From the IMG/VR virus record IMGVR_UViG_3300033821_000019, positions 1 to 64,000 of that record: a stretch of DNA of 64,000 bases. One strand, given 5' to 3'. The translations under genes and the position numbers were made by a program. The notes under the pieces were generated by a model. The model saw nothing but the letters and a program-made list of their open reading frames with translations. It was not told the origin of the DNA and made no database searches. Source of the stretch: a virus. Below are positions 1,052 to 60,814 of this stretch, piece after piece. Position 1 is the first letter of the stretch. Each line of letters opens with the position of its first letter.

Positions 1052-1384
1052 CTAATCCCATTCAACAGTGATGCCTAGCTTCTTTGCATTAGCGTCTGCC
1101 TTGACTTCCCGCATCATTTTACGTGCCTGATTCCTGTTTTCAAAAGTAACAGGCATCGCAATCAAACCGGGCTGGCCTCTTAAAGCTGTAACACTAATAC
1201 TGCCCATGTAAAGGTCAAATTCATAATCGCCGCTAAAGGAGTTGACATAATCATCAAGTTTTCCTTTAGTCTTTTCAGGATTGCCTGTGTATGGGATGAA
1301 AAAATTTAACGTGCCTTCTTCATCCCATGCAGTTAGAATTTGTGCTACTCTCCGTAGCTCCTTAGCTAAAGCTATCTTATTCAC
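1052..1384 (-). CDS. Tagged putative head-cargo protein
   Basis: N-terminus MNKIALAKELRRVAQILTA; AGGAG RBS upstream. Confidence 0.75.
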   Translation of the reverse strand: MNKIALAKELRRVAQILTAWDEEGTLNFFIPYTGNPEKTKGKLDDYVNSFSGDYEFDLYMGSISVTALRGQPGLIAMPVTFENRNQARKMMREVKADANAKKLGITVEWD

Positions 1385-1412
1385 GGCTATTCTCCTTTTA
1401 ATTTCATTACAA

Positions 1413-1661
1413 TTACTTAGGTTCTACTTTCTTTTTGCACTTCAAGCAATACTTAGTATTTTCAAGAACTTTTGTTCCGCAATTAGGACAAGGAAACGTG
1501 CCAGCCGCAACCGCTGCTTGCTTGACTTTCTTCTTACACTTTAGACAATAGCCAGTATTCTCCAAAACCTTAGTGCCACAATCAGGGCATGGGAAAGTTT
1601 CAGCACTTACAAGCTCTTTGGCCAGCTTCAACAATTCCGCCGCAATCTTCTGTCTGTCCAT
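1413..1661 (-). CDS. Tagged double zinc-ribbon protein
   Basis: MDRQKIAAELLKLAKELVSA followed by two copies of TFPCP(D/N)CGTKVLENTxYCLKCKKKV. Confidence 0.8.
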   Translation of the reverse strand: MDRQKIAAELLKLAKELVSAETFPCPDCGTKVLENTGYCLKCKKKVKQAAVAAGTFPCPNCGTKVLENTKYCLKCKKKVEPK

Positions 1662-1712
1662 TGGGTTCTTCCTTTCTAAAATAGGCGCATCTATACGCCT
1701 TACCTGTTATGA

Positions 1713-2048
1713 TTATTCTTTTCCATCCACTTCCTTGGCACCTTCGTTAACAGAAGGCTTGTGCTCTGAGTCTAAAGTGGTCAACATCTTTTCCAATTCT
1801 CCGACGTGAACTTTTTCTTCCCTGCCAATATCAAGTAATACTTCTTTGAGCTTCTTATCGGTTACTACTTCTGCCAATCGCTCATACAAGTTGATAGCTT
1901 CATATTCAGCCATCGTCGCTACTCGTATTGCCCTCAGATTGACATTTTTGGATTCACCCTTGATTAGCTCGCCAAAGTTATCAGCGGCACCAGATGTGAG
2001 TCCTTTTGCTATCCTGAGTAGTTCTGAAGCAATTTTCTTATTATCCAT
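1713..2048 (-). CDS. Tagged ferritin-like protein (rubrerythrin / encapsulated-ferritin type)
   Basis: Start MDNKKIASELLRIAKGLTS; then RAIRVATMAEYEAINLYERLA...LLDIGREEKVHVGEL, a two-helix di-iron half-ferritin motif (E..E, EExH). Confidence 0.8.
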   Translation of the reverse strand: MDNKKIASELLRIAKGLTSGAADNFGELIKGESKNVNLRAIRVATMAEYEAINLYERLAEVVTDKKLKEVLLDIGREEKVHVGELEKMLTTLDSEHKPSVNEGAKEVDGKE

Positions 2049-2061
2049 AGTCTTCATGTCC

Positions 2062-2610
2062 TTATCTGCCTTCATCTTCCTGCACAATTTCAAAATCTAG
2101 CCCAAGAGAAAAAGTTGCTTTCCGTTCATTGATGTCTACTTTCAACCAACTCAAAGTCAAGTTCTTTTCCAACGCGCCAGAAGAACTATATTCCTTCCCG
2201 ATTAGGTCGTTCCAAATAACATCTGAGTCATCATTGTTCAACATATCTTTGGCACGTTCAATAATGTCTTGTTTAATTCTGACCCAATCGTATTTCTCAG
2301 CCGTTCTCTTAAATTGATTCAGATACTTCTTCAAACCGTCTCTGTCTTCACCAAATTGTTCCGTAGCGATAGCAGCCAAAAATTCCATAGTAGAACAGCT
2401 TACGTCAAATCTCAATGTGCCATAATAGGCCGTTCCATAATGTTCTGAATCTAGTTCCATACCTCTTGGCGCATCTCTATCAACACCTTCTTTACCTTCA
2501 TTGACAAATCTTGGATGTCCTTTTCTTATCAAAAACGACAAGAAATACTCAGGCTGCATCGCTATCATGTCGGCAACTATCTTCATCAATTCAATGGCTA
2601 TCTTTTTCAT
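2062..2610 (-). CDS. Tagged hypothetical protein
   Basis: N-terminus MKKIAIELMKIVADMIA. Confidence 0.75.
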   Translation of the reverse strand: MKKIAIELMKIVADMIAMQPEYFLSFLIRKGHPRFVNEGKEGVDRDAPRGMELDSEHYGTAYYGTLRFDVSCSTMEFLAAIATEQFGEDRDGLKKYLNQFKRTAEKYDWVRIKQDIIERAKDMLNNDDSDVIWNDLIGKEYSSSGALEKNLTLSWLKVDINERKATFSLGLDFEIVQEDEGR

Positions 2611-2622
2611 TTTACAACCACC

Positions 2623-2997
2623 CTATATTACACCAATAGCCAATAACCAACTAGGCGCACCATCAACGCCCCAACCATCAGGCTCCACTCTTTGGCCCGT
2701 AACACTCTTAGCCACTCCATCGCTGCTCCATTTTTCAAGTGTGTTCATGCTCGGTGTTTTGTGAAATCCGCTAATATACTTATACAATGAACTAGTATGT
2801 ATCTTGATTGGCTGGACTTCATCATCGTCTATCGTAACAATAGCTACACTGGCGTCTTTGTTTTTCCATTCGACTTTACAGTGCATACCAACAGGAATAA
2901 CCGTTCCAGACCGTAGTTTAAGCTCTTTAACAATCTTATGGTCGGCTGCGATTACTTCTCTGGCGAGTTTAATCAATCTCAAAGCTATTTTGTTCAT
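2623..2997 (-). CDS. Tagged hypothetical protein
   Basis: N-terminus MNKIALRLIKLAREVIA; C-terminal VEPDG...SWLLAIGVI. Confidence 0.75.
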   Translation of the reverse strand: MNKIALRLIKLAREVIAADHKIVKELKLRSGTVIPVGMHCKVEWKNKDASVAIVTIDDDEVQPIKIHTSSLYKYISGFHKTPSMNTLEKWSSDGVAKSVTGQRVEPDGWGVDGAPSWLLAIGVI

Positions 2998-3041
2998 TAT
3001 AATCTCCTGCCAAAATAAGGTACTGTCTAATGGTAGGAGAG

Positions 3042-4506: not shown

Positions 4507-4512
4507 ATAGTC

Positions 4513-5698: not shown

Positions 5699-6262
5699 CT
5701 ACTTTTCCATAAGGTTGTCGGCGTCCATACTGCTGATTAGAACTTCGCCTTGGTGTGTGAATGTCTTGCCGTTGTCTGTTAAGCGAATCGGATGAAGTAG
5801 TTTGGCTTCATACCAACTGCCGCGCTTCCTAAGTACCTTCACTAAATTGCCTTCTAGTAAATTAACAGCAGTAGAAGTTTCACCACTATGAGGAGAAACG
5901 GCTTCATGACCTTCTACCCAATAAGCTGAAAACTCCGTTACTACTTGATAGGTCTTGCCAATATCAAACATACCTTCTGCTGCAAAGAAATTTTTGGGAG
6001 CAATTTTTCTTAAATATCTTGCAACCACATCACCTGCTTTTGAACCTACATCATTGATAACGATTTTATCGCCTTCCCAATGTGCAAGTTTATTGCCGCC
6101 CATCCAACTGCCGTCCAGCGTCTTGCCGTCAGTAGAAAGCTTCTTGCCTGTAAGAGCTTTTTTGTCTGTGAAAGCATCAATAACCTTTTTGTCTTTATCC
6201 GACAAAATAAGGTCAGCAAGAAAATCTCTGGCTACTTTGATTACTATTTTAGAAGTGTCCAC
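5699..6262 (-). CDS. Hypothetical protein with degenerate tag
   Basis: MDTSKIVIKVARDFLA. Confidence 0.7.
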   Translation of the reverse strand: MDTSKIVIKVARDFLADLILSDKDKKVIDAFTDKKALTGKKLSTDGKTLDGSWMGGNKLAHWEGDKIVINDVGSKAGDVVARYLRKIAPKNFFAAEGMFDIGKTYQVVTEFSAYWVEGHEAVSPHSGETSTAVNLLEGNLVKVLRKRGSWYEAKLLHPIRLTDNGKTFTHQGEVLISSMDADNLMEK

Positions 6263-6265: not shown

Positions 6266-6511
6266 TTATTCCCCTAAAAATGAATTCAAATCTTCAAGAG
6301 ACGATTGTACGCGCTCTAATGAACCTACATAACCCCAATCCTTCTCGTCCTTCTTAAAAGCTTCTGCATCTCTCTTTAACTTGATTCGCAGTTTTTCTAC
6401 CAATTTATTTACCTCTTTTGTCAATTTATCGTGCTTGGATTTTGCCGTTTCTTCAGCACATAACGACTTCGCAAGCTTCAACAATTCTGCGGCTACCTTT
6501 TTGTCGTCCAT
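6266..6511 (-). CDS. Tagged small coiled-coil protein
   Basis: MDDKKVAAELLKLAKSLCA; GGAGAG RBS. Confidence 0.75.
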   Translation of the reverse strand: MDDKKVAAELLKLAKSLCAEETAKSKHDKLTKEVNKLVEKLRIKLKRDAEAFKKDEKDWGYVGSLERVQSSLEDLNSFLGE

Positions 6512-8077: not shown

Positions 8078-8938
8078 TTATACTCTCGTGATGGTCAAAA
8101 CTTGGAGCGCATATGGATTGTAGGCTCCGATTCCGATATTCTCGAAGATTGAGAAACCAATCAAGCGATTCTTCGGGTCGTCAGCGGACAATACTGTCAA
8201 TTCTGTGCGGACAGGAATACGTCCGAAGAATTCTGGTTCACCGCAAACATAGACTGTACCTTCTGGAACGATGCGGGAAACAATCAACTTCGCGCCCCAC
8301 AGCGTTGCCATCAAACCAGTCTTCAACAACACTGCTTGTGTTTCGATGTCCAGTGTGTCGCGGTCCCATTTGCGGAGGTCAGCGTAGTCCTTAGCGTTCA
8401 GGAATACGTTGGCAACGCGAATGTCGGTTCTTTCAACGTTGGCGAAAGCATCGGCCAGAGCGTTGGCTGTCAAGTTACCAGTTACAGGAATCGCTGGATT
8501 CGGGTTGGTCGGGTTAGCCGAAAGAGCATCCATTACCGCGAAAACCTTGCGGTCTTCTTCGGCCTGGATTTCAGCCTTCGCCAAATCTACTGAACGTTCA
8601 ATCAGGTCGAAGCGGCGATTCTTGATTTCCGTCAACTGGATTTCTGGATTGCTTGCGATTTCGAAGAGCGGGAACAGAACGCGCTTCGGCTTTGCAACTG
8701 CTACGATATTCAAGCCTTCTTCGCCAACCACATACGCGGTTACGTTCGGGTCTTTATCGTAGATGGGGAGAGCGCCGTCTGGAAGGCGTTCAACGTAGAA
8801 AGCTCTGCGGCCAACGCTGGAATAATCGCGGCGTCTGCGTAGAGGCTGAATCATACTTGCGGCCAAACGTTGACGACCAGCAGCAGTCTTAATATACTGA
8901 CTGATAATCTCCTGTTTGGTATTGTTGTCAATAGCCAT
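8078..8938 (-). CDS. Major capsid protein (HK97 fold, compact 286 aa)
   Basis: Position after protease/scaffold/decoration genes; strong terminator; HK97-like segments (FEIASNPEI..., IQAEEDRKVF, LWGAKLIVSRIVPEGTVY, ENIGIGAYNP). Confidence 0.85.
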   Translation of the reverse strand: MAIDNNTKQEIISQYIKTAAGRQRLAASMIQPLRRRRDYSSVGRRAFYVERLPDGALPIYDKDPNVTAYVVGEEGLNIVAVAKPKRVLFPLFEIASNPEIQLTEIKNRRFDLIERSVDLAKAEIQAEEDRKVFAVMDALSANPTNPNPAIPVTGNLTANALADAFANVERTDIRVANVFLNAKDYADLRKWDRDTLDIETQAVLLKTGLMATLWGAKLIVSRIVPEGTVYVCGEPEFFGRIPVRTELTVLSADDPKNRLIGFSIFENIGIGAYNPYALQVLTITRV

Positions 8939-9110
8939 TGCCTTTTCTCCTTTACCTATATCTGGAAGTGCCGCTGCGCGACATACTCTTCCTGTTGCCT
9001 GTGCTATAATTTAATCTTTGCCTATATTTCGAGAACTACCTTGAAAGGCACGATTCTCGGCAAAAACTAAATTGTAAATTTCATAATGTCCAAAAAGGCA
9101 ATTGTATTGC

Positions 9111-9620
9111 TTAGATTCTCATATCAAGGCCAAGTGTTGGTGATGCTGTTGTCGGAATCTTTGTTACGACGCCTACTACAGCCGCGCCCTGTGCAATTGT
9201 CAACAGACCCTGTGCTGACGAATAGAGATAACGACCAACTGCGTAAGCAATCGGATTGCCAGGAGCGCCGTCATTGGTTTCGTATACGTCTACTTCTACT
9301 GACGCCATTCCTTTGATAACTGCTACTTTGCCAGATGCTACGGCTGGTGCGTTTTCAAAAGCTGCACCGGCTGCATCATTGACGAACAGACCGATTGGCA
9401 TAAGAGCATCAGTGCACGGAACTGCTACGTAATCGCCGCCTTCTGGAGCACTGGCTGCAACATCCATGCCTGCTACTGAACCACCCAATACGCCACGGGG
9501 GGTATTAACACTGAGAGTTGAATTGGTTACAGCACTAGGGAAGTTCTGCTTCGTATAGCAAGCTGGACTTAGCACTGGTATTGAATTCAACTGAGTTCTG
9601 ATTAAAATTGTAAGAGCCAT
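9111..9620 (-). CDS. Head decoration/cement protein (paralog A)
   Basis: Gly/Ala/Val/Pro-rich ~170 aa just upstream of MCP; near-identical to 9662..10174. Confidence 0.7.
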   Translation of the reverse strand: MALTILIRTQLNSIPVLSPACYTKQNFPSAVTNSTLSVNTPRGVLGGSVAGMDVAASAPEGGDYVAVPCTDALMPIGLFVNDAAGAAFENAPAVASGKVAVIKGMASVEVDVYETNDGAPGNPIAYAVGRYLYSSAQGLLTIAQGAAVVGVVTKIPTTASPTLGLDMRI

Positions 9621-9661
9621 TCTTCTTTCCTCCTATAAGAGATTGTCCATTTTTACTTAAC

Positions 9662-10174
9662 TTAGATTCTCATATCCAAACCAAGGGTTGGTGATGCAGT
9701 TGTTGGAACCTTGGTCACAACGCCAACCGGAATAAGAGCAACGCTATGTTCAGGTGTCAACAGACCATTTACTGAACTATAGAGATACTGGCCAACGTTG
9801 TAAACAATTAGAGCACCGGGAGCCAGTTTCTGATTCGTTTCGTATACATCTACTTCTACTGAACCCATGCCCTTCATAACTGCTACTTTACCAGATGCTA
9901 CGGCTGGTGCATTTTCAAAAGCCGCGCCAGCAGCATCATTGACGAACAGACCAATTGGTGTTGTAGCTTCGGTACATGGAATTGCTACGTAATCGCCGCC
10001 TTCTGGACCTGCGGCGTCCATGCCTGCTACCGAACCACCTAATACGCCGCGTGGGGTATTGACACTGAGAGTTGCATTCGCTAAAGAACTAGGAAAGTTC
10101 TGCTTCGTATAGCAAGCTGGACTTAACACCGGTATTGAATTCAACTGAGTTCTAATCAAAATTGTAAGAGCCAT
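9662..10174 (-). CDS. Head decoration/cement protein (paralog B)
   Basis: First 29 aa and C-terminal PTTASPTLGLDMRI identical to paralog A. Confidence 0.7.
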   Translation of the reverse strand: MALTILIRTQLNSIPVLSPACYTKQNFPSSLANATLSVNTPRGVLGGSVAGMDAAGPEGGDYVAIPCTEATTPIGLFVNDAAGAAFENAPAVASGKVAVMKGMGSVEVDVYETNQKLAPGALIVYNVGQYLYSSVNGLLTPEHSVALIPVGVVTKVPTTASPTLGLDMRI

Positions 10175-10225: not shown

Positions 10226-11239
10226 TTATTCAAACAGCTTGCTTACATCCGGTGCACTTTCCCAAAGATTGCTCAAGTCAATTTCCTTGCCTTCGGAAGC
10301 TACCTTTGGCTGTCCACCTAGCTTTGACACACCCTTCTTTTCAGAAGCCTTCTTAGCTTCTACTTTTTCTTCTTCGTCTTCGGCTTTCTTCTCTTCCATG
10401 TCTTCTGCTTCGAAGATTGATGCCAAGAGCTTTTCTTCGGCAGCGTTTACTTCGCCTTCTTCTTCATCTTCCGCAGCCGTTAGCTGAATATCCAATTCTG
10501 CGGCCTTCTTGGCTTCTACCTTCTCTTCTTCTTTATCTTCGCTCTTCTTGGCCTTTACTTCTTCTTTATCTTCGGCCTTCTTAGCTTCTACCTTCTCTTC
10601 TTCCTTGTCTTCGGCTTTCTTGGCTTCTAATTTTTCTTCTTCCTTGTCTTCGGCCTTCTTAGCTTCTACCTTTTCCTCTTCTTTATCTTCGCTCTTCTTG
10701 GCCTTTACTTCTTCTTTATCTTCGGCCTTTTTGGCGTCTTCTTTGGTGAAAGGTGGAGCCTTCTTATCGCCAAGGTTTTCAATCGGGTTCGCAGCTTTCT
10801 TGGCTTCTACCTTCTCTTCTTCCTTCTCTTCGGCTTTCTTGTAAAGGTTTTCTGAGTCAGCAAATCTCTTGAGTGATTCGTTCAAAGATTCAGAACCCAT
10901 CTTCATGAAATCGCGGGCTTGTGCTTCGATGGTGTTTTCTTCAACCTTATCACCAAGAAGAAGAACGGCCAACTTTACAGCCTTGGATGCAGCGGCACGA
11001 ATACTGGCAACGGTTGGAATCGGGAAACCGATTTCATCACGCTGGTCGTTCTGCCAATCGTGTCTCATATCCGGTAATTCATGATTTACTGTGTGTTCAA
11101 ACGTGTGATAATGGTCACGTTCTACAAATTTGCGGTCTGGCTGATTGACTGTACCTGGAAATGGTTTCTCAGGGTCACCACCGTTGCCTTCAGCACCTTC
11201 AGCGGCAGCAAGACGCTTAGTAAGACGTTCTCTTGCCAT
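10226..11239 (-). CDS. Capsid scaffolding/core-like protein with KKAEDKEE repeats
   Basis: Highly charged, repetitive, located between protease and MCP. Confidence 0.65.
   Translation of the reverse strand: MARERLTKRLAAAEGAEGNGGDPEKPFPGTVNQPDRKFVERDHYHTFEHTVNHELPDMRHDWQNDQRDEIGFPIPTVASIRAAASKAVKLAVLLLGDKVEENTIEAQARDFMKMGSESLNESLKRFADSENLYKKAEEKEEEKVEAKKAANPIENLGDKKAPPFTKEDAKKAEDKEEVKAKKSEDKEEEKVEAKKAEDKEEEKLEAKKAEDKEEEKVEAKKAEDKEEVKAKKSEDKEEEKVEAKKAAELDIQLTAAEDEEEGEVNAAEEKLLASIFEAEDMEEKKAEDEEEKVEAKKASEKKGVSKLGGQPKVASEGKEIDLSNLWESAPDVSKLFE
10500..10840 (-). repeat. Coding tandem repeats encoding (E)EEKVEAKK(A/S)EDK units
   Basis: About 8 imperfect 33-39-bp units within ORF 10226..11239. Confidence 0.85.
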
Positions 11240-11286: not shown

Positions 11287-12054
11287 TTACTTAGAAATCT
11301 GTGCACGATGAGCGTCAATAGCATCCGCCAACGTATCAATACGGAGTGCCAATTTCTTGTAACCTTGTTTTTCGAGATAAGAAGCAACGTTGTCCAGACG
11401 CTCAGATGCTTCCTTCAAGCGTGATGTGCGCTGTTGCTTAATGGCTTCACCACCCGTTTCGCCTTTGACCGGGCTGTTAAAGGCTTCTTCCATCTTGTCA
11501 AATTTTTGGGTGATTTCGTCTTCGATTCCAGGCTCTGTTTCAGAGGATTTCTTTGCTTCCTCTTCTTTTTCTTCTTCTACTGTTTCATTTTCTTCGTGTT
11601 CATCTGCTTTTTTCTCTTCTACCTTCTCTTCTACTTTTTCTTCGGCTTTCTTGGCTTCTACTTTCTCTTCTACTTCGTCTTCGGCCAAAATTGTTTGAGC
11701 AAGCTTCACCAACATGCCTGCTACTTTGTCAGAAGCTTCCATTGTTTCCTCCTCATCCTCAGAACGCTTGTCACAACCTTCGCATTCTTCGTCGTCAGCT
11801 TTCTTCGCTTCAACCTCAAATGCTTCTTCTTCTTCGTCTTCACCAGCAGCGTTGCAACCTTCACATTCGTCGTCTTCCAACTCTGCCTCAAGAGCACGAA
11901 TTTCAGTGAGGATATCGCCATCAGAAGCTTCAACGATTTCCTTTTCTTCCTTCTTGAGTTCTTCTGTTTCTTGCTTTAATTCGTCGTCTTGGTCGGCAAG
12001 ACGTTTTTCGAGAGCTTCGATTTCTTTACCGAGAGAGCCTGTTTCACGTCCCAT
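11287..12054 (-). CDS. Acidic scaffold-like protein with internal tag-like helix
   Basis: E/K/A-rich; internal SDKVAGMLVKLAQTILA resembles the N-terminal tag; two DECEGC motifs. Confidence 0.6.
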   Translation of the reverse strand: MGRETGSLGKEIEALEKRLADQDDELKQETEELKKEEKEIVEASDGDILTEIRALEAELEDDECEGCNAAGEDEEEEAFEVEAKKADDEECEGCDKRSEDEEETMEASDKVAGMLVKLAQTILAEDEVEEKVEAKKAEEKVEEKVEEKKADEHEENETVEEEKEEEAKKSSETEPGIEDEITQKFDKMEEAFNSPVKGETGGEAIKQQRTSRLKEASERLDNVASYLEKQGYKKLALRIDTLADAIDAHRAQISK

Positions 12055-12272: not shown

Positions 12273-14537
12273 CTAGTGTTTTGCCGCCCAAATAGTAACT
12301 CTGTTTATAAGTTGTTCCTCCTTACGTCTCCGCAATTCGGCACAAGCCACGTGCAACGCCAGCATTCCATTTTTATCTGCTACGCGCAATCTACTTATGT
12401 CATCAAACAAACCTTCAAGGCTTGTAGTTGACATACTTAAGATATTCGCGTATTTCTTTGTATCCACTTCACTAATATAATGATTGAGTACCGCGCCTTG
12501 GAATGCTGGACGTTCTACCCAACTTGCTTCAATATAGATACAAGATTTCGGGTCACCTTTCCTCTTTCCATCTGAACCAATAATTGTTCTACCACACAAT
12601 TCAGCTACGATACGATTGATGCCATTTTCATCTACGAAATATGTCATCAATTCATTATCTAAGTGATGGCAATTGGTACTAGCATCAGTGAATTCTTTAC
12701 CACATTTACTACATTGTGTGAAGTTTGCCTGACATCCCATTGACATAGTTGTTAATGCGCCTGATTCTATCTTTCGAATAAGGTCACTATGTTTTCTGTC
12801 CGTTGCAACTAAAATGTCCGTGTAGTAGACATTGGCCTTTTTACCAGTTTTGCTAGTATAAGCTACAGGACGCAGCACAGCATCAAGAATTTTCCCCTTG
12901 GATAATTCTGGAATCTGACAGTTATGAACTATAACACCTTCTGCTATATAAGAATTATCATTTTCTACTTCAAGATTAAATACATCACACTCCAAATCAA
13001 TTGTAGATACTTCTGTAATCTTTGAGGTTATGTATTTTTGATTTTCATGTTCAAATACATAAGTAAACTTTTGTTCTTGCCTTGCTTGGATGAGTACATT
13101 GTTGTAATTCAAAATTTCATCTAGCGATTTTGAATCTTGTACTGTAAATCTTAATAAATATCCGGGTCTTGATTTCTTTCCGGTATTGGGGTCAACGAAT
13201 ACTTGATATCCGTCTACTATTGTTTCTTCTGAATATCTCGGCAATACACCTGTTTCTTTGTATACGGGGTTCATTCCCAAACGCCAAGATATAAACATTA
13301 GTTGTTGAATCAGCGCCTTCGTCTTTAATTCAATACTATAACCACGTGACTCGCCTTTGTCTGTGCCGTCGCCATTGATTAAATGCTTCATAATTAATGC
13401 TTGTAGTTCCAAGGGCAACCATAACGCCGCATCATTAAGTTGTTTTGCCCAAGCATACTTACCACACCATTTTTTGAAGAATTCTGCAACTTTGATATTA
13501 CAAAGAGATACACACCAAGAACCACTTTCAGATTCATATACTCTAGGCTCGCAATCGCTTCTAAACAACTCTACAAATTCTGTAATTAAAAGTGATTTTA
13601 TTCTTTCTGCAACATCGCATTCGTCATTTCCAAGAGCAAATTGAACTCCCGACTCTCCATCATTAAATATATTTTGACTAGTAAAAGAACCTTCTGCCAA
13701 GAACCATCCTATTAACTCTGCACGATTCTTGTTTACTTCATTATTTTCTATTATAGTAGAAGAAACCGGATGAGTTAAGAAATCACGGTCTTTATTTATC
13801 TTCCCGGCATCTACCCATTGAGGTGTAAGTCCACAAGGATAATCTTCACCTTTTCTCTTATGAACACCTACAGTAAATCCGGTCCACTTATTCAGCGTCA
13901 AACCACTAAAATCAGGTGGATTGTTTGGTCGTCCTGTTTTTGGGCAAGTCTCTCTGGCGTGGTATACCCAAAATGGATGATTTGCGGTGACATACATATC
14001 CCTTGACAAAATTCCATTGCTTGTTATTTTTGTCAAAGAAGTAGATTTTCTAATTTGAACATTCTTTACAACATCTATATTTCCAAGCCTGTTGATAATT
14101 TTATCACCGGGTTTTATAGTCTCAATAGCTTGATAAGTTCCATTAGCCATTAAAACTCTAGTACCAGCCACAAAACAATGTTCAAGGTAATTTTCAGCAC
14201 CCACAAATGAACGGAAACAAGCCAGTAGAACTTCATCTGACCAGCCATTACCATTATTATTGACTAGTTCATCGGTAGGAGCTTTAACGTAGTAGCCATT
14301 TTCTTCCACATTGCAGCTTGATACAATACTACAATGACTGAATAAATATTTGTCTGCGCTGAACTTATTCCAATCTATATTTATATCTCTGGCGATTCTA
14401 ACATTGCCATTACCAGCATAGCTCCATTCCTTCTTTGGATTGTAAAGGATAGAGGCTATGGGCAAGTCAATTTCGAATGTTCTTGCTTTGTTAGAAGCTT
14501 CCAAAAGGCATTTATCGTTATCGCAGCGTCTATTCAT
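12273..14537 (-). CDS. Prohead maturation protease with intein
   Basis: Exteins NNNGNGW..., FVGAENYLEH|CQIPELSKGKILDA, TTMSMGC...CSKCG, EASWVERPAF, typical of HK97-type head proteases. Confidence 0.8.
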   Translation of the reverse strand: MNRRCDNDKCLLEASNKARTFEIDLPIASILYNPKKEWSYAGNGNVRIARDINIDWNKFSADKYLFSHCSIVSSCNVEENGYYVKAPTDELVNNNGNGWSDEVLLACFRSFVGAENYLEHCFVAGTRVLMANGTYQAIETIKPGDKIINRLGNIDVVKNVQIRKSTSLTKITSNGILSRDMYVTANHPFWVYHARETCPKTGRPNNPPDFSGLTLNKWTGFTVGVHKRKGEDYPCGLTPQWVDAGKINKDRDFLTHPVSSTIIENNEVNKNRAELIGWFLAEGSFTSQNIFNDGESGVQFALGNDECDVAERIKSLLITEFVELFRSDCEPRVYESESGSWCVSLCNIKVAEFFKKWCGKYAWAKQLNDAALWLPLELQALIMKHLINGDGTDKGESRGYSIELKTKALIQQLMFISWRLGMNPVYKETGVLPRYSEETIVDGYQVFVDPNTGKKSRPGYLLRFTVQDSKSLDEILNYNNVLIQARQEQKFTYVFEHENQKYITSKITEVSTIDLECDVFNLEVENDNSYIAEGVIVHNCQIPELSKGKILDAVLRPVAYTSKTGKKANVYYTDILVATDRKHSDLIRKIESGALTTMSMGCQANFTQCSKCGKEFTDASTNCHHLDNELMTYFVDENGINRIVAELCGRTIIGSDGKRKGDPKSCIYIEASWVERPAFQGAVLNHYISEVDTKKYANILSMSTTSLEGLFDDISRLRVADKNGMLALHVACAELRRRKEEQLINRVTIWAAKH
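12921..14177 (-). mobile_element. Intein (419 aa) with LAGLIDADG endonuclease in the prohead protease
   Basis: Starts CFVAGTRVLMANG; block B VTANHPF; LIGWFLAEGS and HLINGDG motifs; ends VFNLEVENDNSYIAEGVIVHN|C. Confidence 0.92.
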
Positions 14538-15734: not shown

Positions 15735-16217
15735 TTAATCGTCGTAATTTATTGCCTGTTTTAGCATTGAGAAAAATTCACCGACTTGGCTCGACTGATT
15801 CTTTGGTCCATGTTTTCTCGCAAATTCGCCGCTAAATTTTCCTTCCACAATAGCCTTAGCATGTTGAAGAACTTTGTTTTTCCATGGTGCCTTTGACTTG
15901 CCCAAAGCTTTAACTACATTGATGAAATTTTCTTTTGAAGGAGCTTTGGTTATCAATTTATTTACTTCTGTAATCCCTTCATCGTCTTTATGCGGAGTTT
16001 TAACAACATCATCAAACCAAGCATCTGTATGCGAGTCAAAAGTTCCAGACTTAGATTTATTCTCTTCTGGCTTCGTCTTTACTACTTTGTGATTTCTCTT
16101 ATCAGCATCAGGATGTTCCTTGAGATAGACTTGCATAGCTCTATCCGTTGGGAAATCAATGGCCAATAAACTCTGAGCTACTTTAATTAATTCTGAGGCT
16201 ACTAGTCTCTTATCCAT
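15735..16217 (-). CDS. Tagged hypothetical protein
   Basis: MDKRLVASELIKVAQSLLA. Confidence 0.75.
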   Translation of the reverse strand: MDKRLVASELIKVAQSLLAIDFPTDRAMQVYLKEHPDADKRNHKVVKTKPEENKSKSGTFDSHTDAWFDDVVKTPHKDDEGITEVNKLITKAPSKENFINVVKALGKSKAPWKNKVLQHAKAIVEGKFSGEFARKHGPKNQSSQVGEFFSMLKQAINYDD

Positions 16218-16228: not shown

Positions 16229-16462
16229 TTATATGACTTTGTTAGACGGTATTTTCCAACCACAGCCAGGACAAATGTAAATTTTAACACCCCTCGAAAA
16301 TGGTTGGCGTTCCATAATATCTTTACATTTAGGACATATACAAGACTCTTTTTCTACTTCACCTTTTGAACGCTTGTAAACTCTTCCAACATCATGATGA
16401 TAAACAGCCAATAAACTTCTGGCTACTTTAATTAGTTCTGACGCTACTAATTTCTTGTCCAT
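16229..16462 (-). CDS. Tagged zinc-ribbon protein
   Basis: MDKKLVASELIKVARSLLA; CPKC...CPGC. Confidence 0.75.
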   Translation of the reverse strand: MDKKLVASELIKVARSLLAVYHHDVGRVYKRSKGEVEKESCICPKCKDIMERQPFSRGVKIYICPGCGWKIPSNKVI

Positions 16463-22327: not shown

Positions 22328-24568
22328 TTATTCCGCTTTCTCTTCTGGTTTGGTGTCTTCAGGTTTATCTTCCTTCTTTTTTCCCGGCTTTTTCTCTTGG
22401 TTTGTTTCTTCTAATATCTTGTCAACTACTTTTTCTATATCTTCATCCGTTGCATCTTCACCAAGTTCCTTCGTAATAGTTTCGGCTGCGTCTTCTGCTT
22501 GACTCTCTAAGCCATTCTTGGCATCTTCTTGCTCTTTATCAACTTCTTCTTGTTTTGTGTTTAATACCTTATCAACTGCCTTGCCAATATCTTCGTCAGT
22601 AGCATTTTCATCCAAACCTTCACTAATGCTTTGTGCCACTTCTTCAACTTGTTTTGGCTCCACTTCAGAGCTATCTGGTAGCTTAGTTTCCTCAGTTGCT
22701 GACGCTGCTGCCGGTTGTTCTGGTGCAACTTCCGCTGGTGCTTCTTCTGCCGGTGCTTGTTCATCAGAAGCACCTTGCCCTAAATCAAAGCCTCCACCAC
22801 CGTCTCCACCGCCTTCTGCACCGCCTTCTCCTTCTGGTGGTTGCGCCATATTAAGATGTAGATATTTGGCAACTCTCGGTAAGATGTCAGTCTTTTCTAC
22901 TAATCCACGACCAACTTCAACATTCACTTCTTCCAATACACGATTAAATGTAGCGTCCTTGACAGTGAACAAATCATTGTAAATGCGTTCGTGAATTTCG
23001 TCCGTATTGAGATTGAACAACTCATAGATAATGTCAATCGGCATCGAACCCTTCTGATACAACTGGAAGAGGCTATCAAATACTTCTTGATTATCACGAA
23101 TGGACAATCTATTAAAGCCAAGCTTCGGATAGAAGTAGGTCTTGATTCCAAACTCGTCCGTGTCATACCAGCCATGTGCTTCGGCTACTGGTCTGAACAA
23201 TGCCTTTTCCACATAGTTTTGCAGGATTTCTCTGGTTAACAAGAATACTGTGTTCAAGATTTCAACGGTGATTTTGTTTCCAGTATAGGTGCCTTCGCCT
23301 GTCAGCAATTCTCTGGTAACACCCAATCCAGCAAATACATGGTTTTCAATCATTTCATACTCGGCTTGCAAATCAAGCAATCTCTGGTCTGCTCCAACTT
23401 GCTGCCAATCCCAATCGTAGTTGGTGATAATGGCGAAATCAGGGTCTAAATATGACAAGTCGAACTGCAATCTCAAATCGCCCAACTGTTCATCCGTAAG
23501 ACCCGGTGCAGAAATTTTGTTCTTTGGTGTCATATTGCGTGTGGCTAGACCAAGCTGCGTATACCGGAAATTTTCTTTCATCAACATTGGAACAAGTACA
23601 CGTTCCAAAACACTTGCGCCCAAATCCAAATAAGGAGAGCGTCTGCGTGCCAAATGATGAACGAAAGAACCCGTGGAAGGGTCAGAATCCATCACAATAC
23701 AGCCTTCTTCACGAATCATATTGACTATTTCTTCTGGTACTGATTTGATAATCTGCCTGTGCAAATCACTCATCATTTCGTCGGGAGCGTTCTTTGTAGC
23801 TTCAATGAGCGTCATCAATCTTTGCGGACGGTATTCCACCCTAGCATTTTCAGAGAATGGATATTGGAAAATACTGACTTCTTCTGGCGGCAGCATTACA
23901 ACCCTATCCCACATTTTCAACTTAGGATTCCACTCATGGAACAAATAACAATTTCCTATCATGTTATATTCAAAAAGAATAGCCTGCAATGTTTGAAATA
24001 AATTTAGCTTATCACACATACCAGTGAAAAAGCCATGTATTTTCTTCTTCAGTTCTTTGGGTTTGCCTTCCATTTTTGGCATGTTCAAAGAAAGCTTTGA
24101 CATTGGCAAGTCAGACAAAAGTTCCAATGCTCTACCGCAATAAGCATCTGTTCTTTGCCAATATCTGTACCATTCATACTTCTCTTTAAGCGTAACAGGC
24201 CAATACAGGATTCCACCATTTTGCTCATTCATCATAATGAAGTATGGTGGAATATCTCTCAAACCGCCAACTTGATTCAAGCCTTGGGCATATGATGATT
24301 GATAGGTAGAAAGAGTGCTTGTGCCTATAAGGGAATTTTCAATAGGCAAACTATCCATCATCATACCGGCAGTGCGTGTGCCTGCTCCACGACCAGCACG
24401 ACCAAGCATGGCTACCTTGTTGCGTTCCATTTGTGAAACGATAGTTGCCTTCACCGGGTCAACATGGCGAGTAGTAACACCGATATTTTTGACCCCACCC
24501 TTGAAAGAACCTTGTGGCACATTCGGGGAAGGATTATCTATAGGTGTAGTCTTTCTTGTTCGTGGCAT
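22328..24568 (-). CDS. Portal protein with acidic C-terminal extension
   Basis: Between terminase and protease; portal-like segments (FEYNMIGNCY, LPPEEV, HLARRRSPY..GASVLERVL, FAGLGVTRELLTGEG). Confidence 0.8.
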   Translation of the reverse strand: MPRTRKTTPIDNPSPNVPQGSFKGGVKNIGVTTRHVDPVKATIVSQMERNKVAMLGRAGRGAGTRTAGMMMDSLPIENSLIGTSTLSTYQSSYAQGLNQVGGLRDIPPYFIMMNEQNGGILYWPVTLKEKYEWYRYWQRTDAYCGRALELLSDLPMSKLSLNMPKMEGKPKELKKKIHGFFTGMCDKLNLFQTLQAILFEYNMIGNCYLFHEWNPKLKMWDRVVMLPPEEVSIFQYPFSENARVEYRPQRLMTLIEATKNAPDEMMSDLHRQIIKSVPEEIVNMIREEGCIVMDSDPSTGSFVHHLARRRSPYLDLGASVLERVLVPMLMKENFRYTQLGLATRNMTPKNKISAPGLTDEQLGDLRLQFDLSYLDPDFAIITNYDWDWQQVGADQRLLDLQAEYEMIENHVFAGLGVTRELLTGEGTYTGNKITVEILNTVFLLTREILQNYVEKALFRPVAEAHGWYDTDEFGIKTYFYPKLGFNRLSIRDNQEVFDSLFQLYQKGSMPIDIIYELFNLNTDEIHERIYNDLFTVKDATFNRVLEEVNVEVGRGLVEKTDILPRVAKYLHLNMAQPPEGEGGAEGGGDGGGGFDLGQGASDEQAPAEEAPAEVAPEQPAAASATEETKLPDSSEVEPKQVEEVAQSISEGLDENATDEDIGKAVDKVLNTKQEEVDKEQEDAKNGLESQAEDAAETITKELGEDATDEDIEKVVDKILEETNQEKKPGKKKEDKPEDTKPEEKAE

Positions 24569-26646: not shown

Positions 26647-27399
26647 TCACTCTTTCAGATTCATTATTTTTCCATCTTTTATATAGCCCTTTTCCAAATC
26701 CGGCAGTAAATAGTGTTTTCTTAGTGTAGCTGGCCCATGTCCTACTTTTTCTGCCACATTTTTGATAATCTCATTAAACTTCTTTTGCCGGTCTTTTTCT
26801 TCCTTGATACTGTTTTGGCGCTTCAAGCATTCTATTACCATGCGGTTTGCTGAGTAACCGCGCATATCTTTGGCAGTCACTTCAAACTCATCAAGGTAAC
26901 GATTGATTTTGTCGGCTTTGATTTTGAATCCGTCTTTCGTCACCATCACGAAAGAATCAGGCTTATCTGCTCTCTTTAACAGTCCTGACAATATTTTGGC
27001 TATGGTTTCATTAGTGAATTCTTTTTCATGCTCTACAGACGACTTGCCTACATAATTCAGCATTACTTTGGAACCTTCGACTTTAATATGTTTCTTCTTC
27101 AAACCAGTGATGCCAACATGGTCTTCTTCTGCTGATGCATCATTGCCCACACGCTCCGCTGTCTTATCCATCATGGCCACAACCAATGCAGTTAATTGTG
27201 TCTTTTCATCTTCGTTTTTTAAATCACGTGTCACTTTGTTTCTCAGACCTTGTATATTCTGAGAAATCGTATGCACCGCGTCTATCTTTTTCTTGGCACG
27301 CTCTTTCTCTGCGTCTGTTAAATCTTTAGCTTTGCCAAATTCACCGCGCAGTAATTTGGCGACATGCAAAAGTTCTCTAGCTATGTGTATTTTATTCAT
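26647..27399 (-). CDS. DNA topoisomerase IB carrying the N-terminal tag
   Basis: Catalytic pentad motifs ERVGN, YVGKS, KDMR, VGH...LRKHYL; N-terminus MNKIHIARELLHVAKLL. Confidence 0.88.
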   Translation of the reverse strand: MNKIHIARELLHVAKLLRGEFGKAKDLTDAEKERAKKKIDAVHTISQNIQGLRNKVTRDLKNEDEKTQLTALVVAMMDKTAERVGNDASAEEDHVGITGLKKKHIKVEGSKVMLNYVGKSSVEHEKEFTNETIAKILSGLLKRADKPDSFVMVTKDGFKIKADKINRYLDEFEVTAKDMRGYSANRMVIECLKRQNSIKEEKDRQKKFNEIIKNVAEKVGHGPATLRKHYLLPDLEKGYIKDGKIMNLKE

Positions 27400-30400: not shown

Positions 30401-30510
30401 ATGCCTAATCCCCAAGGAGCTTCGATAAAAGTGATAGCATCAACAATATCAGTATTGTTGCCGGTCAAAAAGGATTCGGCAAGCTTCTTCATAAAGTCGT
30501 CGTTTGCCAT
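27403..30510 (-). CDS. terL: Terminase large subunit with intein
   Basis: Walker A GRRAGK|S, Walker B VIMDEMAF, ISSP, nuclease GIDLG and HDDISDA; likely start MANDDF (GGAGAGG RBS). Confidence 0.92.
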   Translation of the reverse strand: MANDDFMKKLAESFLTGNNTDIVDAITFIEAPWGLGIKLFPAQRFILKCYYGLKLDDTEETIEVPDLVNDKILYRFTEKAFLKWLYHEKRCNTDTIEGMQFRELVLVLGRRAGKCRYVNDLIPTTVGSITFGELLKRKNNKEKVGITTYKPDNLVKSITYDFKIWDNGVKPCYKLKTQTGIEEISSGNHPYLVWRDDWEQPKFIDLSELKISDRIAVAKSNAMFGQKTIGINRAKLLGYLLGDGGITCDVGFTTKDIKKVEEIQSILDIEFPGYLIKKRGKKNYGYSITHKDGKKKRHINQVKLWLQEIGVFGYKSKHKFVPECILQAPKEEISAFISRIYSCDGWATGHEIGYCSASDNLVQGLKHLLLKFGILTSLTEKMALCNGKRFHANTLSIYEMSSLRNFQTEINIFLKEEKVKQVVNLRSNAKNTTNLCYTLPKGVVNRIERLRDEASLSHRDIIGPEDKCRIRPQYAPTRYKAIAYGEKLNDKFIIDMCCSDVLWDAVKSIKQVGELQTIDLCVDDTHIIGGDIISHNSTMSSCISAYELYKLIKRGDPSSYYNFPPQQSIVIMNVAPTDEQAGVVFDQTMKLSMNCPYLRDRTVNRTQSYFNLQTDTDMKVAGRKVASLTCLAGGCSSNSLRGRNALTVIMDEMAFFIDNGGRFSGDEVYKALTPSTTTFRGEGKIICISSPYAKYGKFYDRYLESFDENDTTLMFKMYSAMVNPQVDPVVLKTERRRNRVGFMCEYGGEFSDSITAWIEDENEFKKCINVNRTMSSRGQVGTTYFMGIDLGIKNDGAAIGIVHKEDATNKIIVDYADVFYSGSSDVWERDQSIYSSCNKFAKQELIQVSDMAKEIQELVKWFPIKSGWFDQFNGYSLMEKLYEMNLKQFHMENVTETLNSEIYMIFKDLYAAGMVELIDHPIAIPELLSLEAERKAKNRIIVRAPKKAGSHDDISDAIARAIWECYTNYKQRPANITSLVGKNGAVIVSGQQAVGTSSLNSFAANKILKHGINLQRPLIGGKSFGGRNSPHGRMY
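28903..30168 (-). mobile_element. Intein (422 aa) with LAGLIDADG endonuclease in the TerL Walker A motif
   Basis: Starts CRYVNDLI; SGNHPY; LLGYLLGDG and ISRIYSCDG; ends TIDLCVDDTHIIGGDIISHN|S. Confidence 0.92.
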
Positions 30511-30591
30511 TATCCTCTCCCTGAAACAAATTTGCAGAAGGCACCTTTTAACAGAAAGCACCTTCTGCAAATCACCTCCTAAAAACGGTGC

Positions 30592-51911: not shown

Positions 51912-52163
51912 TTAAGGCTTGAGCATTTCCATAATATCTTCGATAGCACCTTGGGCATTTTGATACCTTGATGCTATGCGGTGAATGTATGGTATATCAG
52001 AGTATTGGTCTAGTTTACCAAAAGCGTCATCAAGAACAAGACGGGCCTTGGCAAATTCGTTGCGAGCCACAGCAGCATCTTCACGAGTATATGGTTTGCC
52101 TTTGAAGCCCATAAGCATTTTAGCCGCCTTAACCAATTCTCTAGCCACACGCATTCTGTTCAT
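51912..52163 (-). CDS. Tagged small protein
   Basis: MNRMRVARELVKAAKMLMG. Confidence 0.7.
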   Translation of the reverse strand: MNRMRVARELVKAAKMLMGFKGKPYTREDAAVARNEFAKARLVLDDAFGKLDQYSDIPYIHRIASRYQNAQGAIEDIMEMLKP

Positions 52164-54048: not shown

Positions 54049-54058
54049 ACTGTCCTCC

Positions 54059-54589: not shown

Positions 54590-54593
54590 AGCC

Positions 54594-55181: not shown

Positions 55182-55183
55182 GA

Positions 55184-55753: not shown

Positions 55754-55765
55754 TCTTGCAATCCT

Positions 55766-59010: not shown

Positions 59011-59558
59011 GCCTTGTTTTCTCTAAATTTAACTACTGCTTCACAAAAAGTAATCAATTCTTCATCATTGATACCATTTCTCGCTAAATTTGCTAGATAA
59101 GAAATAAACCTCACATTCCCCTGCAAGTAGCCTTTCTTCGGGTCTATTCTATCCAAACTGGCTCTAAAAATTCTACTAGAATTATTTTTCCAACCAGCGG
59201 TAGTATTTGGCAATAATAACTGCAAACCCGATATACAACAAATTCCTTTTTGTTTTTCCCAAAGTTCCTTAATATATTCAAGAGTTAAATCTGTCGTTCC
59301 TTTTAGCAAACTTCTTTCTTTAGAAGTTTTCAAAAAATACCTAAATGGAGTAAATTCATCAGACTTATCGTATCCCTTCAACAGATTTTTTCCATCATAA
59401 ACTCGCGTTCCTATGTTTTGACTTTTGCCAGAACAGGAACGACTACAGAAATGTCTTCTTTTAAGAAGTTCACTTCTGCTGTATTCTATTGAACTTTTTT
59501 CAAATATTTTGCGACAACATGCACATTCTACTTTTACTTTCTTTCCTTTAATAGCCAT
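59007..59558 (-). CDS. Free-standing HNH/His-Me-finger endonuclease
   Basis: CACC...FCSRSC; QKGICCISG...SLDRIDPKKGYLQGNVRFISYLANLARN; start MAIKG after AAGGAGG. Confidence 0.8.
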   Translation of the reverse strand: MAIKGKKVKVECACCRKIFEKSSIEYSRSELLKRRHFCSRSCSGKSQNIGTRVYDGKNLLKGYDKSDEFTPFRYFLKTSKERSLLKGTTDLTLEYIKELWEKQKGICCISGLQLLLPNTTAGWKNNSSRIFRASLDRIDPKKGYLQGNVRFISYLANLARNGINDEELITFCEAVVKFRENKA

Positions 59559-59585
59559 AAGCACCTCCTTTATGCTTATGGCTAT
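59551..59585 (-). promoter_or_regulatory. 13-bp perfect hairpin occluding the endonuclease start codon
   Basis: AUAGCCAUAAGCA-uaaaggagg-UGCUUAUGGCUAU: SD in the loop, AUG in the stem. Confidence 0.7.
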
Positions 59586-59598
59586 ATAAAAGAATTAT
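59585..59598 (-). promoter_or_regulatory. Putative late promoter motif (ATAATTCTTTTATA)
   Basis: Abuts the 5' arm of the hairpin. Confidence 0.55.
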
Positions 59599-59616
59599 GA
59601 ATGCGACGGGAATTGC

Positions 59617-60299
59617 TGGTGGAGGTGGCGGGACATCTGTATCTTTGCTTTCACAAAGTATGGACTATTCCTTCATCTGGTTTTTATCCAGAGAGTGGCG
59701 TTTATGATTTCAATTCATGCTAATCCTTAAAAGGATTGCTTAAATTTATCCATCCTAGTGACGCCATGATTTTTCAATTTTAGGCGTTCTATGAGTCTCT
59801 AGACCATCGCCATGATTTCTCAATGGTTTTGGTACGGTGTTTTCATGGGTTATTCCTAACCTTTAGAATTCGCCGTTTGAGCCACTTTTTTGCGCAAGAA
59901 TCACTTCTTGCCTCGACAATTCCTTATCGAACCCGCGTCCTGAGATACTCCAAAGCAAGCGTCTACACGTTTAGTTGCAGATTTGGGACTTCGGTTTGAA
60001 ACTGGCTCTACAACGGCCATTCTCAATCCTATTCTGATTGTCTCACTTTTCAATTCCTCAGATGGTGGAACTGAAAGCCAGTCTGATTGGGTACGCAGTT
60101 ATAGGCATCCAGACGTAATCCCTATAACCACGTCGCTGGTGTTTAGGCAGCGATTTCAGCTACCTTGCGGAAGCTGAAGTCAACGTGTGTTACGTTGGCA
60201 GTTAGTTATTTTCCCCGGTGGATTTTACGTGGCCAACCTGAGAACTCCACGACATGCAGCTACGCCTCTCGGCAATCCAGTCGAAACCTGTTCACCCCC
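59617..60299 (-). ncRNA. ssrA: tmRNA interrupted by a group I intron
   Basis: 5' GGGGGUGAACAGGUUUCGAC; acceptor stem GGGGGUG/CACCUCC-ACCA with G3-U; T-arm GCGGG-UUCGAU|U-CCCGC; tag reading frame 60199-60143 encodes ANVTHVDFSFRKVAEIAA*. Confidence 0.93.
59634..59925 (-). mobile_element. Group I intron (292 nt, ORF-less) in the tmRNA T-loop
   Basis: P1 UUCGAU/GUCGAG with U-G at the splice site; P3 GUGGC/GCCAC; R-like CUAGAGACUC; S-like AAGGAAUAGUCC; P9 GAAA tetraloop; terminal G. Confidence 0.88.
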
Positions 60300-60333
60300 A
60301 TATTCAGCTTCAAAGAACCACTGTCACTTCCTC

Positions 60334-60343
60334 ATTATATCGT
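60334..60343 (-). promoter_or_regulatory. Putative tmRNA promoter, extended -10 (ACGATATAAT)
   Basis: TATAAT about 35 nt upstream of the mature tmRNA 5' end; matches the ACGATAYA class. Confidence 0.5.
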
Positions 60344-60361
60344 CATCTTTGCCAAATTCCA

Positions 60362-60814
60362 CTAATTTTCTTTGGGAAAAAACTTCAACGGCTTGAGCAA
60401 GTTCTTCTCTGGAACACTGTGAAAACCTTCGTATTTATGTTTTTCAAAAAGCTCGATTGGAAGTTTTTCATCTAACTCATTAAAATTACCAATGCCATAT
60501 TTGAACAAAGTTGCATCCACTATTTTATTATCAACGACCACCCACGCATGAAGAAGTTTGTCCAAGATTTCTTCTTTCTCGTGTTTGCCAGCGAATCCTT
60601 GCCAAACAAAATGATAGCTTGCCGACAGATAACCTACCCAATACACCGGCTCTTTGCCACGCTCTTTTTGTGCCCAATATTCCTTTCGCGCATTCTCAAA
60701 ACACCAACGAACTTCGCCTTTGGTAAACTGTTTTTCCATCACAGAAGGCATTGTTTCAGACAAAATACCTTTTGCCAATTTCAGTAACTCTTTTGCTATC
60801 AATAGTTTATACAT
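60362..60814 (-). CDS. Tagged protein, transglutaminase/papain-like core possible
   Basis: MYKLLIAKELLKLAKGILS; CFENA...HAWV...IVD.T (Cys-His-Asp pattern). Confidence 0.6.
   Translation of the reverse strand: MYKLLIAKELLKLAKGILSETMPSVMEKQFTKGEVRWCFENARKEYWAQKERGKEPVYWVGYLSASYHFVWQGFAGKHEKEEILDKLLHAWVVVDNKIVDATLFKYGIGNFNELDEKLPIELFEKHKYEGFHSVPEKNLLKPLKFFPKEN

Follow-up and report, generated by a model that had tools for sequence, protein, structure and literature searches.

A 19-residue helix shared by unrelated proteins of an uncultured phage G relative, and its possible role in head targeting

The first 64 kb (positions 1 to 64,000; hereafter the window) of a 78,380-bp viral contig, IMG/VR record IMGVR_UViG_3300033821_000019, encodes 15 open reading frames (ORFs) that begin with the same amphipathic helix of 19 residues and continue into unrelated bodies. 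The contig derives from an uncultured relative of the giant phage G. The helix, which we call the tag, is selected as a peptide, modular, specific to one clade, homogenised within genomes and enriched in the block of head genes.

The head-gene block and the tagged reading frames

Almost all of the genes in the window lie on the minus strand, and its left third is occupied by the head-morphogenesis block. In the direction of transcription the block begins with the terminase gene and its intein, and proceeds through a tagged topoisomerase IB (Topo IB) gene, the portal gene, an ORFan of 1087 amino acids, two small tagged genes (16462 and 16217), the protease gene with its intein, scafA, scafB, two paralogous genes for proteins of 170 residues, and the major capsid protein (MCP) gene, after which the main tagged array runs to the end of the contig (Table 1). 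Thirteen of the 15 tags are found between terL and the end of this array, on the same strand. The clustering beside the capsid genes described in an initial annotation of this DNA is thus confirmed by the placement of the MCP gene at 8078-8938.

That annotation had listed 15 unrelated proteins sharing an N-terminal helix. Each of the 15 positions is the start of a minus-strand ORF that does open with the helix; 13 of these begin with ATG and two with GTG, and AGGAG-like ribosome-binding sites precede them. The whole contig was translated in six frames (2,186 segments) and searched with a hidden Markov model (HMM) built from the 15 tags. The model recovered exactly the same 15, each at the start of an ORF, with E values of 4e-10 to 1.3e-4, while the next-best match (E 0.56, 7.5 bits) fell inside scafA. 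A second scoring matrix, built from the tags of relatives only and therefore independent of the window, scored 12 window N-termini at 6.4 to 27.2 bits, and the highest score among 465 interior control windows was 4.5 bits. The tags at 2610 and 2997, each shorter by two residues, gave weaker scores.

Five weaker versions had also been listed, and these fared unequally. Those at 684, 6262 and 5683 come next after the strong tags when all N-termini are ranked (p 0.004-0.028 against interior windows) and look like a form three residues shorter, which recurs in the array of a relative; the one at 52380 is marginal (p 0.05), and the one at 19057 is not supported (p 0.21). A candidate for the late-promoter-like motif said to accompany the distant copies, TTATACTCTCC, is present upstream of 2997 and 52380, and was not seen upstream of 60814. 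As to the bodies, blastp confirmed that they are unrelated apart from a faint zinc-ribbon likeness. Only four of them belong to Pfam families, these being two zinc ribbons, a rubrerythrin/ferritin-like protein and Topo IB, and none was found for the rest.

Table 1. Tagged reading frames, head genes and a terminator-like element in the window
Coordinates	Strand	Feature	Evidence
304..684	-	Probable short-form tag (VIVRIANDILS), 126 aa	Relatives-only matrix 2.6 bits, p 0.004 vs interior windows; no HMM match
1052..1384	-	Tagged ORF, 110 aa, GTG start, ORFan body	HMM 24.5 bits
1413..1661	-	Tagged ORF, 82 aa, double zinc ribbon	PF13240, PF12773; HMM
1713..2048	-	Tagged ORF, 111 aa, rubrerythrin/ferritin-like two-helix body (half-bundle)	PF02915 28.8 bits
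2062..2610	-	Tagged ORF, 182 aa, tag two residues shorter, weakest of the 15	HMM 22.4 bits; relatives-only matrix 6.4 bits
2623..2997	-	Tagged ORF, 124 aa, tag two residues shorter	HMM 19.1 bits; relatives-only matrix 19.8 bits
4513..5145	-	Tagged ORF, 210 aa, ORFan body	HMM 36.1 bits
5156..5683	-	Probable short-form tag (IITKIAKSFCA), 175 aa from ATG at 5683	Relatives-only matrix, p 0.028
5699..6262	-	Probable short-form tag (IVIKVARDFLA), 187 aa	Relatives-only matrix, p 0.024
6266..6511	-	Tagged ORF, 81 aa, coiled-coil-like body; homologues in L001, L005, L019	HMM 36.5 bits
6536..6910	-	Tagged ORF, 124 aa, ORFan body	HMM 34.8 bits; relatives-only matrix 27.2 bits
6913..7227	-	Tagged ORF, 104 aa, acidic helical body	HMM 34.9 bits
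7276..7683	-	Tagged ORF, 135 aa, GTG start, ORFan body	HMM 34.3 bits
8003..8042	-	Terminator-like element directly after the MCP gene: 14-bp GC-rich hairpin and U-run (UUUUGUUU)	z -4.0; 0/200 shuffles fold as well
8078..8938	-	MCP, 286 aa, phage-G type	phrog_2522, E 6e-52
9111..10174	-	Two paralogous genes, 169/170 aa, at the position of phage G decoration protein gp26	Synteny
10226..11239	-	scafB, acidic repeat protein, 337 aa, conserved N-domain including helix AASKAVKLAVLLLGD; putative scaffold	Position and composition
11287..12054	-	scafA, acidic, scaffolding-like, 255 aa, conserved C-terminal helix-turn-helix	Putative role
12273..14537	-	Head maturation protease, intein-interrupted	phrog_18299, E 1e-8; Hint/intein models
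15735..16217	-	Tagged ORF, 160 aa, tag then DFPT...YLKEHPDADK..HKV box	HMM
16229..16462	-	Tagged ORF, 77 aa, zinc ribbon, between portal and protease genes	PF13453; HMM
22328..24568	-	Portal protein	phrog_16240, E 1.5e-23
26647..27399	-	Tagged Topo IB catalytic core, 250 aa, directly after terminase gene	PF01028, E 4e-30
27403..30570	-	Large terminase, intein-interrupted; intein carries LAGLIDADG endonuclease	Hint/intein-splicing models
51912..52163	-	Tagged ORF, 83 aa, far from head block	HMM 31.1 bits
52174..52380	-	Marginal tag-like N-terminus, 68 aa, just upstream of tagged ORF 52163	p 0.05; TTATACTCTCC upstream
60362..60814	-	Tagged ORF, 150 aa, far from head block	HMM 27.0 bits

The MCP of the window is 37% identical to gp27 of phage G, 48% identical to the MCP of Tunturiibacter phage Tunturi_5, and 70% identical to that of LR745208, a 485-kb uncultured phage. 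A prohead protease and the acidic scafA and scafB proteins, which probably act as scaffold, are encoded beside the capsid gene. The ORF that occupies the decoration-protein position in one related locus (L076) shows 38% identity to its counterpart here. The hairpin that follows the MCP gene is likely to be a strong terminator; it was missed by a consensus promoter and terminator scan, which found no more than chance.

Four copies of ATTATAGCA occur on the gene strand (9002-9010, 12105-12113, 14967-14975 and 26461-26469, all minus), where about 1.5 are expected over both strands. Two of them sit upstream of the capsid and scafA genes (as AAATTATAGCAC), making this a candidate promoter element for head genes. 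In the middle of the tagged array are two untagged paralogous ORFs (3096-3839 and 3802-4506) for Trp- and Cys-rich proteins of 247 and 234 residues, the first of which matched no Pfam or PHROG family. Elsewhere in the window (53500-56152), five tandem paralogues open with M-K-x-R-x-G-F-V-S-N-S-S-S, and constitute a second, unrelated family of shared N-terminal leaders.

Anatomy and selection of the tag

In the window the tag is a 19-residue amphipathic helix with the consensus M-(D/N)-x3-(I/V)-A-x-E-L-(L/V)-x-(V/I/L)-A-(K/R)-x-L-x-(A/G/S). Its anatomy was examined in 73 non-redundant tagged ORFs from the window and its relatives, which give the consensus M1, D/N2, (I/V)6, A7, (R/K/S)8, E9, L10, (L/V)11, x12, (V/I/L)13, A14, (K/R)15, (E/S/D)16, L17, x18, (A/G/S)19. 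Ala is invariant at positions 7 and 14 (73/73 each), and Leu at 10 (68/73), Glu at 9 (60/73) and Lys or Arg at 15 (68/73) are nearly so. Conservation drops abruptly at residue 20, and Gly and Pro are common at residues 20 to 23. Hydrophobic residues occupy positions 6, 7, 10, 11, 13, 14 and 17, that is four of every seven; the helix is strongly amphipathic, carries a net charge of about +2 and has no aromatic residues. Two invariant alanines one heptad apart form a pattern that would be the signature of very close helix-helix packing.

The tagged Topo IB was modelled with AlphaFold2 from an alignment of 32 sequences, with a mean predicted local distance difference test score (pLDDT) of 85. The tag is predicted as a separate helix (residues 3-21, pLDDT 49-66), followed by a non-helical break at residues 22-28 and then the catalytic core at pLDDT 86-97. 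In this model the tag behaves as an appendage to the enzyme and not as part of its fold.

Such a repeated opening could in principle have no common function, being the relic of a copied 5′ cassette (ribosome-binding site and first codons) or a translation element acting at the level of RNA. When all 105 pairings of window tags are compared, the codon is identical at 39.0% of the positions that share a residue, where 37.7% is expected from codon usage, and in an array of 18 tags in a relative (G003) the values are 39% and 31%. Codon position 3 in the window tags holds 0.50 bits of information, as against 0.92 and 1.26 bits for positions 1 and 2, and the DNA upstream of these tags has only the ribosome-binding site in common. 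Synonymous sites are thus saturated, which argues for selection on the peptide and against a copied DNA cassette. In a few pairs of neighbours, however, the DNA of the tag is more alike than expected: the tags at 16217 and 16462 have 10 of 16 codons identical, against 5.4 expected, and those at 6511 and 6910 have 11 of 15, against 5.6, an excess that also extends among the neighbours 6511, 6910 and 7227. Duplication or conversion does, then, occasionally propagate the tag, without being the general explanation. The relic is largely refuted by the 105 pairs, in which synonymous sites stand at the codon-usage expectation, and by upstream regions that share the ribosome-binding site alone. The peptide is moreover conserved across genomes and in 912 clusters of a protein library (see below), with a sharp boundary at residue 19-20, and we regard the absence of a common function as extremely improbable.

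Tags resemble one another more within a genome (identity 0.56) than between genomes (0.435; permutation p 5e-4), and each genome has its own consensus, for instance KKVASELLKVAKSLTA in the window and QRIARELVAVAKELTA in G003. Uniformity of this kind, combined with saturated synonymous sites, points either to a single genome-specific reader or to mutual compatibility between the tags.

Bodies, tag position and relatives

The 73 tagged ORFs fall into 57 body families. Within one array all 18 bodies compared are mutually unrelated, and the same is true of 13 of 13 in the window. The tagged proteins are small, with a median of 111 residues, and 39 of 73 bodies have an isoelectric point above 8, compared with 25 of 67 untagged ORFs of the window. 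In a census of function among 72 tagged proteins Pfam named about six, and PHROGs supplied only unnamed families; the ORFs flanking the arrays were likewise uninformative as to function.

The portability of the tag is best seen in Topo IB. Catalytic cores 50-60% identical to that of the window carry the tag at residue 1, a degenerate tag, no tag, or other N-terminal domains, and in one variant the tag follows an extra domain of 80 residues, for which no relative was found in the loci of related phages. The Topo IB core therefore seems to accept N-terminal adaptors freely. Phage-type cores of this enzyme in metagenomes (P0070, P0073, P0079 and others) bear an N-terminal SprT-like domain (PF10263), the 80-residue domain, or neither.

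The tag is often followed by a second box, (D/E)FPTQDA.DKY(L/M)K(D/E)HPDADKS.HKV or its variant EFDTEAEKKKYQQEHEVRPGTKLTV (15735-16217 in the window; L025:3252-4961; L063:392-2293). Tag and box together form a unit that is repeated two to five times in single proteins of 400-640 residues, even at their C-termini, and one such multi-unit protein also contains MORN repeats. The idea of an N-terminal address accordingly holds for ORF starts in the window and gives way in these multi-module proteins, where the tag is also internal and C-terminal. Since the helix occurs at such positions, it is more readily seen as a docking helix than as a leader that needs to be removed; judged by its distribution among sequences, it is probably a general docking module, usually but not necessarily N-terminal.

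A search of IMG/VR with the MCP yielded 80 loci, the longest contig measuring 469 kb. When whole records were scanned with the tag profile, between 3 and 28 tags came up in each of the nine (9/9) with at least 88% MCP identity, and none in six records of a sister clade at 70% identity, including a complete genome of 469 kb; nor was any tag found by a whole-genome scan of LR745208. In the relatives all tags lie on the strand of the capsid gene, these genomes being largely unidirectional, and they occur both within the block of portal, protease and MCP genes and in arrays situated 3-40 kb downstream. The densest array seen (locus L081, G003:71000-90999) has about 20 tagged genes back to back; of the 44 consecutive ORFs in its 20 kb, roughly 30 bear the tag in full or degenerate form, and an endonuclease VII-like gene breaks the series. 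The tag-bearing clade and its tag-less sister also differ in the scaffold region: in the former, scafA stands between protease and scafB, and the scafB helix reads KAV(K/R)LAVLLLG in the tag-bearing clade versus K(C)(I/L)TIAQRMLPG in the sister.

When 1.84 billion cluster representatives in a protein library were searched with the tag profile, 912 clusters matched at E <= 0.001. Ten of these that were sampled are tiny and metagenomic and, where named at all, are called only "hypothetical protein". A tblastn search of 50,697 phage records with a 20-residue tag sequence and with the DFPT-box protein returned nothing meaningful, and the literature searched, including a 2026 review of jumbo phages, describes the tag nowhere.

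In phage G itself (L093, NC_023719.1 3298-44131) about 11 of the 57 ORFs around the portal, protease and capsid genes open with a basic motif unlike the tag, for example MKRLIKK, MKKRLLKK, SRLKK or LKRLIKK (gp5, 9, 10, 12, 13, 17, 20, 38, 53, 56 and 57). The motif may represent a second N-terminal address specific to the lineage. In the clade studied here, scafB orthologues open similarly, with M-S-K-R-V-R-L-T.

Candidate functions and comparison with known systems

The best reading of the tag, to which gene context and analogy lend about an even chance, is capsid targeting in the manner of the capsid targeting sequence (CTS) of phage T4. The tag would be a docking helix, portable and broadly hydrophobic on one face, that one clade has on dozens of small, unrelated and rapidly changing proteins, and all copies in one genome would be read by one common partner that keeps them uniform. 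The reader would most likely be part of the assembling prohead, either the scaffold core or the inner surface of the capsid. Closure of the shell would then trap the tagged proteins, which would remain in the head beside the DNA and could reach the next host; that the reader is a head component, and that the proteins are both packaged and ejected, we infer.

A reader in head assembly is favoured because of the tags in the head block, the tag-like helices at the scaffold position, the difference between clades in the scaffold region, and the likeness to T4. The tag-like helices are found in two genomes. Window scafA contains an internal one (KVAGMLVKLAQTILAED, at approximately 11670-11727), a weak match at 7.5 bits and E 0.56 that lies in an insertion specific to the window, and an acidic ORF between the protease and scafA genes of G001 contains two, at 10.2 and 11.8 bits. 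The scafB helix has an Ala-x6-Ala spacing in the same register as the tag. If a head protein does read the tag, a scaffold component is a more plausible candidate than the MCP, which is about 90% identical among genomes with differing tags. Much of the targeting peptide envisaged in the initial annotation is retained in this reading, namely a module that is portable at the protein level, sits on unrelated bodies, clusters in the head block and is missing from homologues of those bodies elsewhere.

Several observations weigh against capsid targeting. The cleavage near the terminal LxA that had been suggested is not borne out: among the 73 tags no column is conserved after residue 19 and there is no consistent protease site, a sequence of the type (A/S/G/L/I/V/C)-x-E being present in residues 16-28 of only 25, and for most copies there is no support for removal by the prohead protease. 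When the exteins of that protease were searched against Pfam and the PDB sequences, nothing assignable emerged as to its family and specificity. Whole-genome profile scans detected no tag in the cultured relatives phage G and Tunturi_5. The terminator-like hairpin stands between the MCP gene and the tagged array downstream, and two window tags, along with several arrays of the relatives, are tens of kb from the head genes. Among the top library hits the helix is internal or C-terminal, without a preceding Met, on 38 occasions, and such copies fit a general docking or self-association module as well as they fit a capsid signal. Finally, the notion of a scaffold that itself carries the tag was dropped as a general feature, there being no enrichment in 41 scafA and 45 scafB orthologues (Mann-Whitney p 0.09 and 0.41).

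Some of these observations would be accommodated if the tag helices bound each other. Invariant Ala residues seven apart, with Leu at the intervening d-type positions, are typical of tightly packed helix pairs, and the tagged proteins might co-assemble through Ala-zipper-type bundles into mixed oligomers or a condensate, which could act in the infected cell without entering the capsid or form an inner-body-like mass that is packaged secondarily. Natural proteins with two to five copies of the helix per chain are consistent with this, homogenisation within genomes is what mutual compatibility demands, and no separate receptor was found. A lone helix of 19 residues is however short for a stable bundle, most tagged proteins carry just one copy, and the enrichment in the head block would be unexplained unless assembly ended in the head; we therefore consider self-association rather unlikely. 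We also think it improbable that the tag docks accessory proteins to a hub outside the head, such as a chaperone or protease of phage or host, a replication or transcription platform, or an infection compartment, where it would serve for localisation or regulation. DNA enzymes and zinc ribbons among the bodies would suit such a hub, as would the tagged genes and arrays that are remote from the head genes, the terminator between the MCP gene and the array, and the internal tags. On the other hand, 13 of the 15 window tags and many in the relatives are in or beside the head-assembly block, acidic ORFs at the scaffold position have tag-like helices in two genomes, and in the data examined no candidate hub was found together with the tag.

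The strong amphipathicity and the net charge of about +2 would also permit a cationic N-terminus of this sort to anchor proteins peripherally to the inner membrane of the host. The invariant Ala residues, the near-invariant Glu9 and the lack of aromatics would point instead to a specific protein-protein interface, and genome-specific homogenisation is not expected of lipid binding, so that we hold membrane binding to be very unlikely.

Under capsid targeting, a more far-reaching proposal can be made tentatively: that in this widespread clade each genome has its own helical address code, by which dozens of hypervariable effectors, most of them ORFans and with Topo IB and a ferritin-like protein among them, are loaded into the capsid for co-injection. 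We think this possible, though with less confidence than targeting as such. Were it true, the packaged and injected arsenal of each phage could be read directly from its sequence, and the 19-residue helix would be a ready handle for loading cargo, foreign proteins included, into very large capsids. As a head-targeting signal the tag would mark some 15% of these phages' genes as encoding virion cargo, and a mass of ORFans would pass into a functional class delivered with the DNA, making them prime candidates for anti-defence and host-takeover functions. The strategy of the T4 internal proteins would have been reinvented in the phage G lineage with a different peptide and on a far larger scale. 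Even under the rival explanations, a strongly selected module of 19 residues in at least 912 protein clusters, without family annotation on the proteins checked and undescribed in the literature searched, marks a gap in the knowledge of giant phages.

The CTS of T4 directs internal proteins to the prohead core; it is a leader of the MKTYQEFIAE type, about 10 residues long, with the protease site L/I-x-E. Like the tag, the CTS of internal proteins IPI-III and Alt is a short, separable N-terminal peptide on otherwise unrelated, small and often basic proteins, which are encoded at hypervariable loci of a large myovirus with a prohead protease and a scaffold core. The tag differs in that it has no sequence similarity to the CTS, is helical and 19 residues in length as opposed to about 10, and belongs to a capsid lineage of the phage G type. 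Most of its copies lack an L/I-x-E site, it is also internal and C-terminal, and it has 15-28 or more carriers per genome fragment, compared with a handful in T4. By analogy the tag would work like the CTS in its logic, and it is not a member of the CTS family.

Encapsulins offer a second parallel, in which a short peptide addresses diverse cargo, including ferritin-like proteins, into a shell of the HK97 fold. One tagged body (1713..2048) is indeed ferritin/rubrerythrin-like, which is suggestive, but its score against the EncFtn-like model PF22277 (24.3 bits) is under the cut-off of 27. Cargo-loading peptides of encapsulins are mostly C-terminal (family 1), extended and rich in Gly, Ser and Leu, whereas the tag is an N-terminal helix. 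These differences in the peptide, and a shell gene of a phage head protein family (phrog_2522) that is accompanied by genes for portal, terminase and protease, rule out an encapsulin system.

The giant phages phiKZ and SPN3US likewise package many non-structural, injected proteins encoded near the head genes. Their inner-body and ejection proteins are, however, families of paralogues with propeptides cut at (S/A/G)-x-E, and no common address helix on unrelated bodies is described in the reviews. Polymorphic toxins and effectors resemble the tagged proteins at the level of concept only, having a constant N-terminal trafficking domain and hypervariable C-terminal payloads in arrays; these are systems of bacterial secretion, and the domains are much longer.

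In scaffold-helix recruitment a short helix carries a protein into the procapsid, as do the C-terminal helix-turn-helix of the P22 scaffold, the C-terminal tail of the HK97 protease, and SaPI1 CpmB, which mimics the scaffold helix of 80-alpha. In such systems unrelated proteins can share or mimic a scaffold helix, and scafA of the window has a conserved C-terminal helix-turn-helix of that kind. Those elements, in contrast to the tag, are C-terminal and have one or two users each instead of dozens, and the similarity between tag and scaffold is weak here and not general. By analogy, recruitment through a scaffold helix would nevertheless be the closest mechanistic model for the tag.

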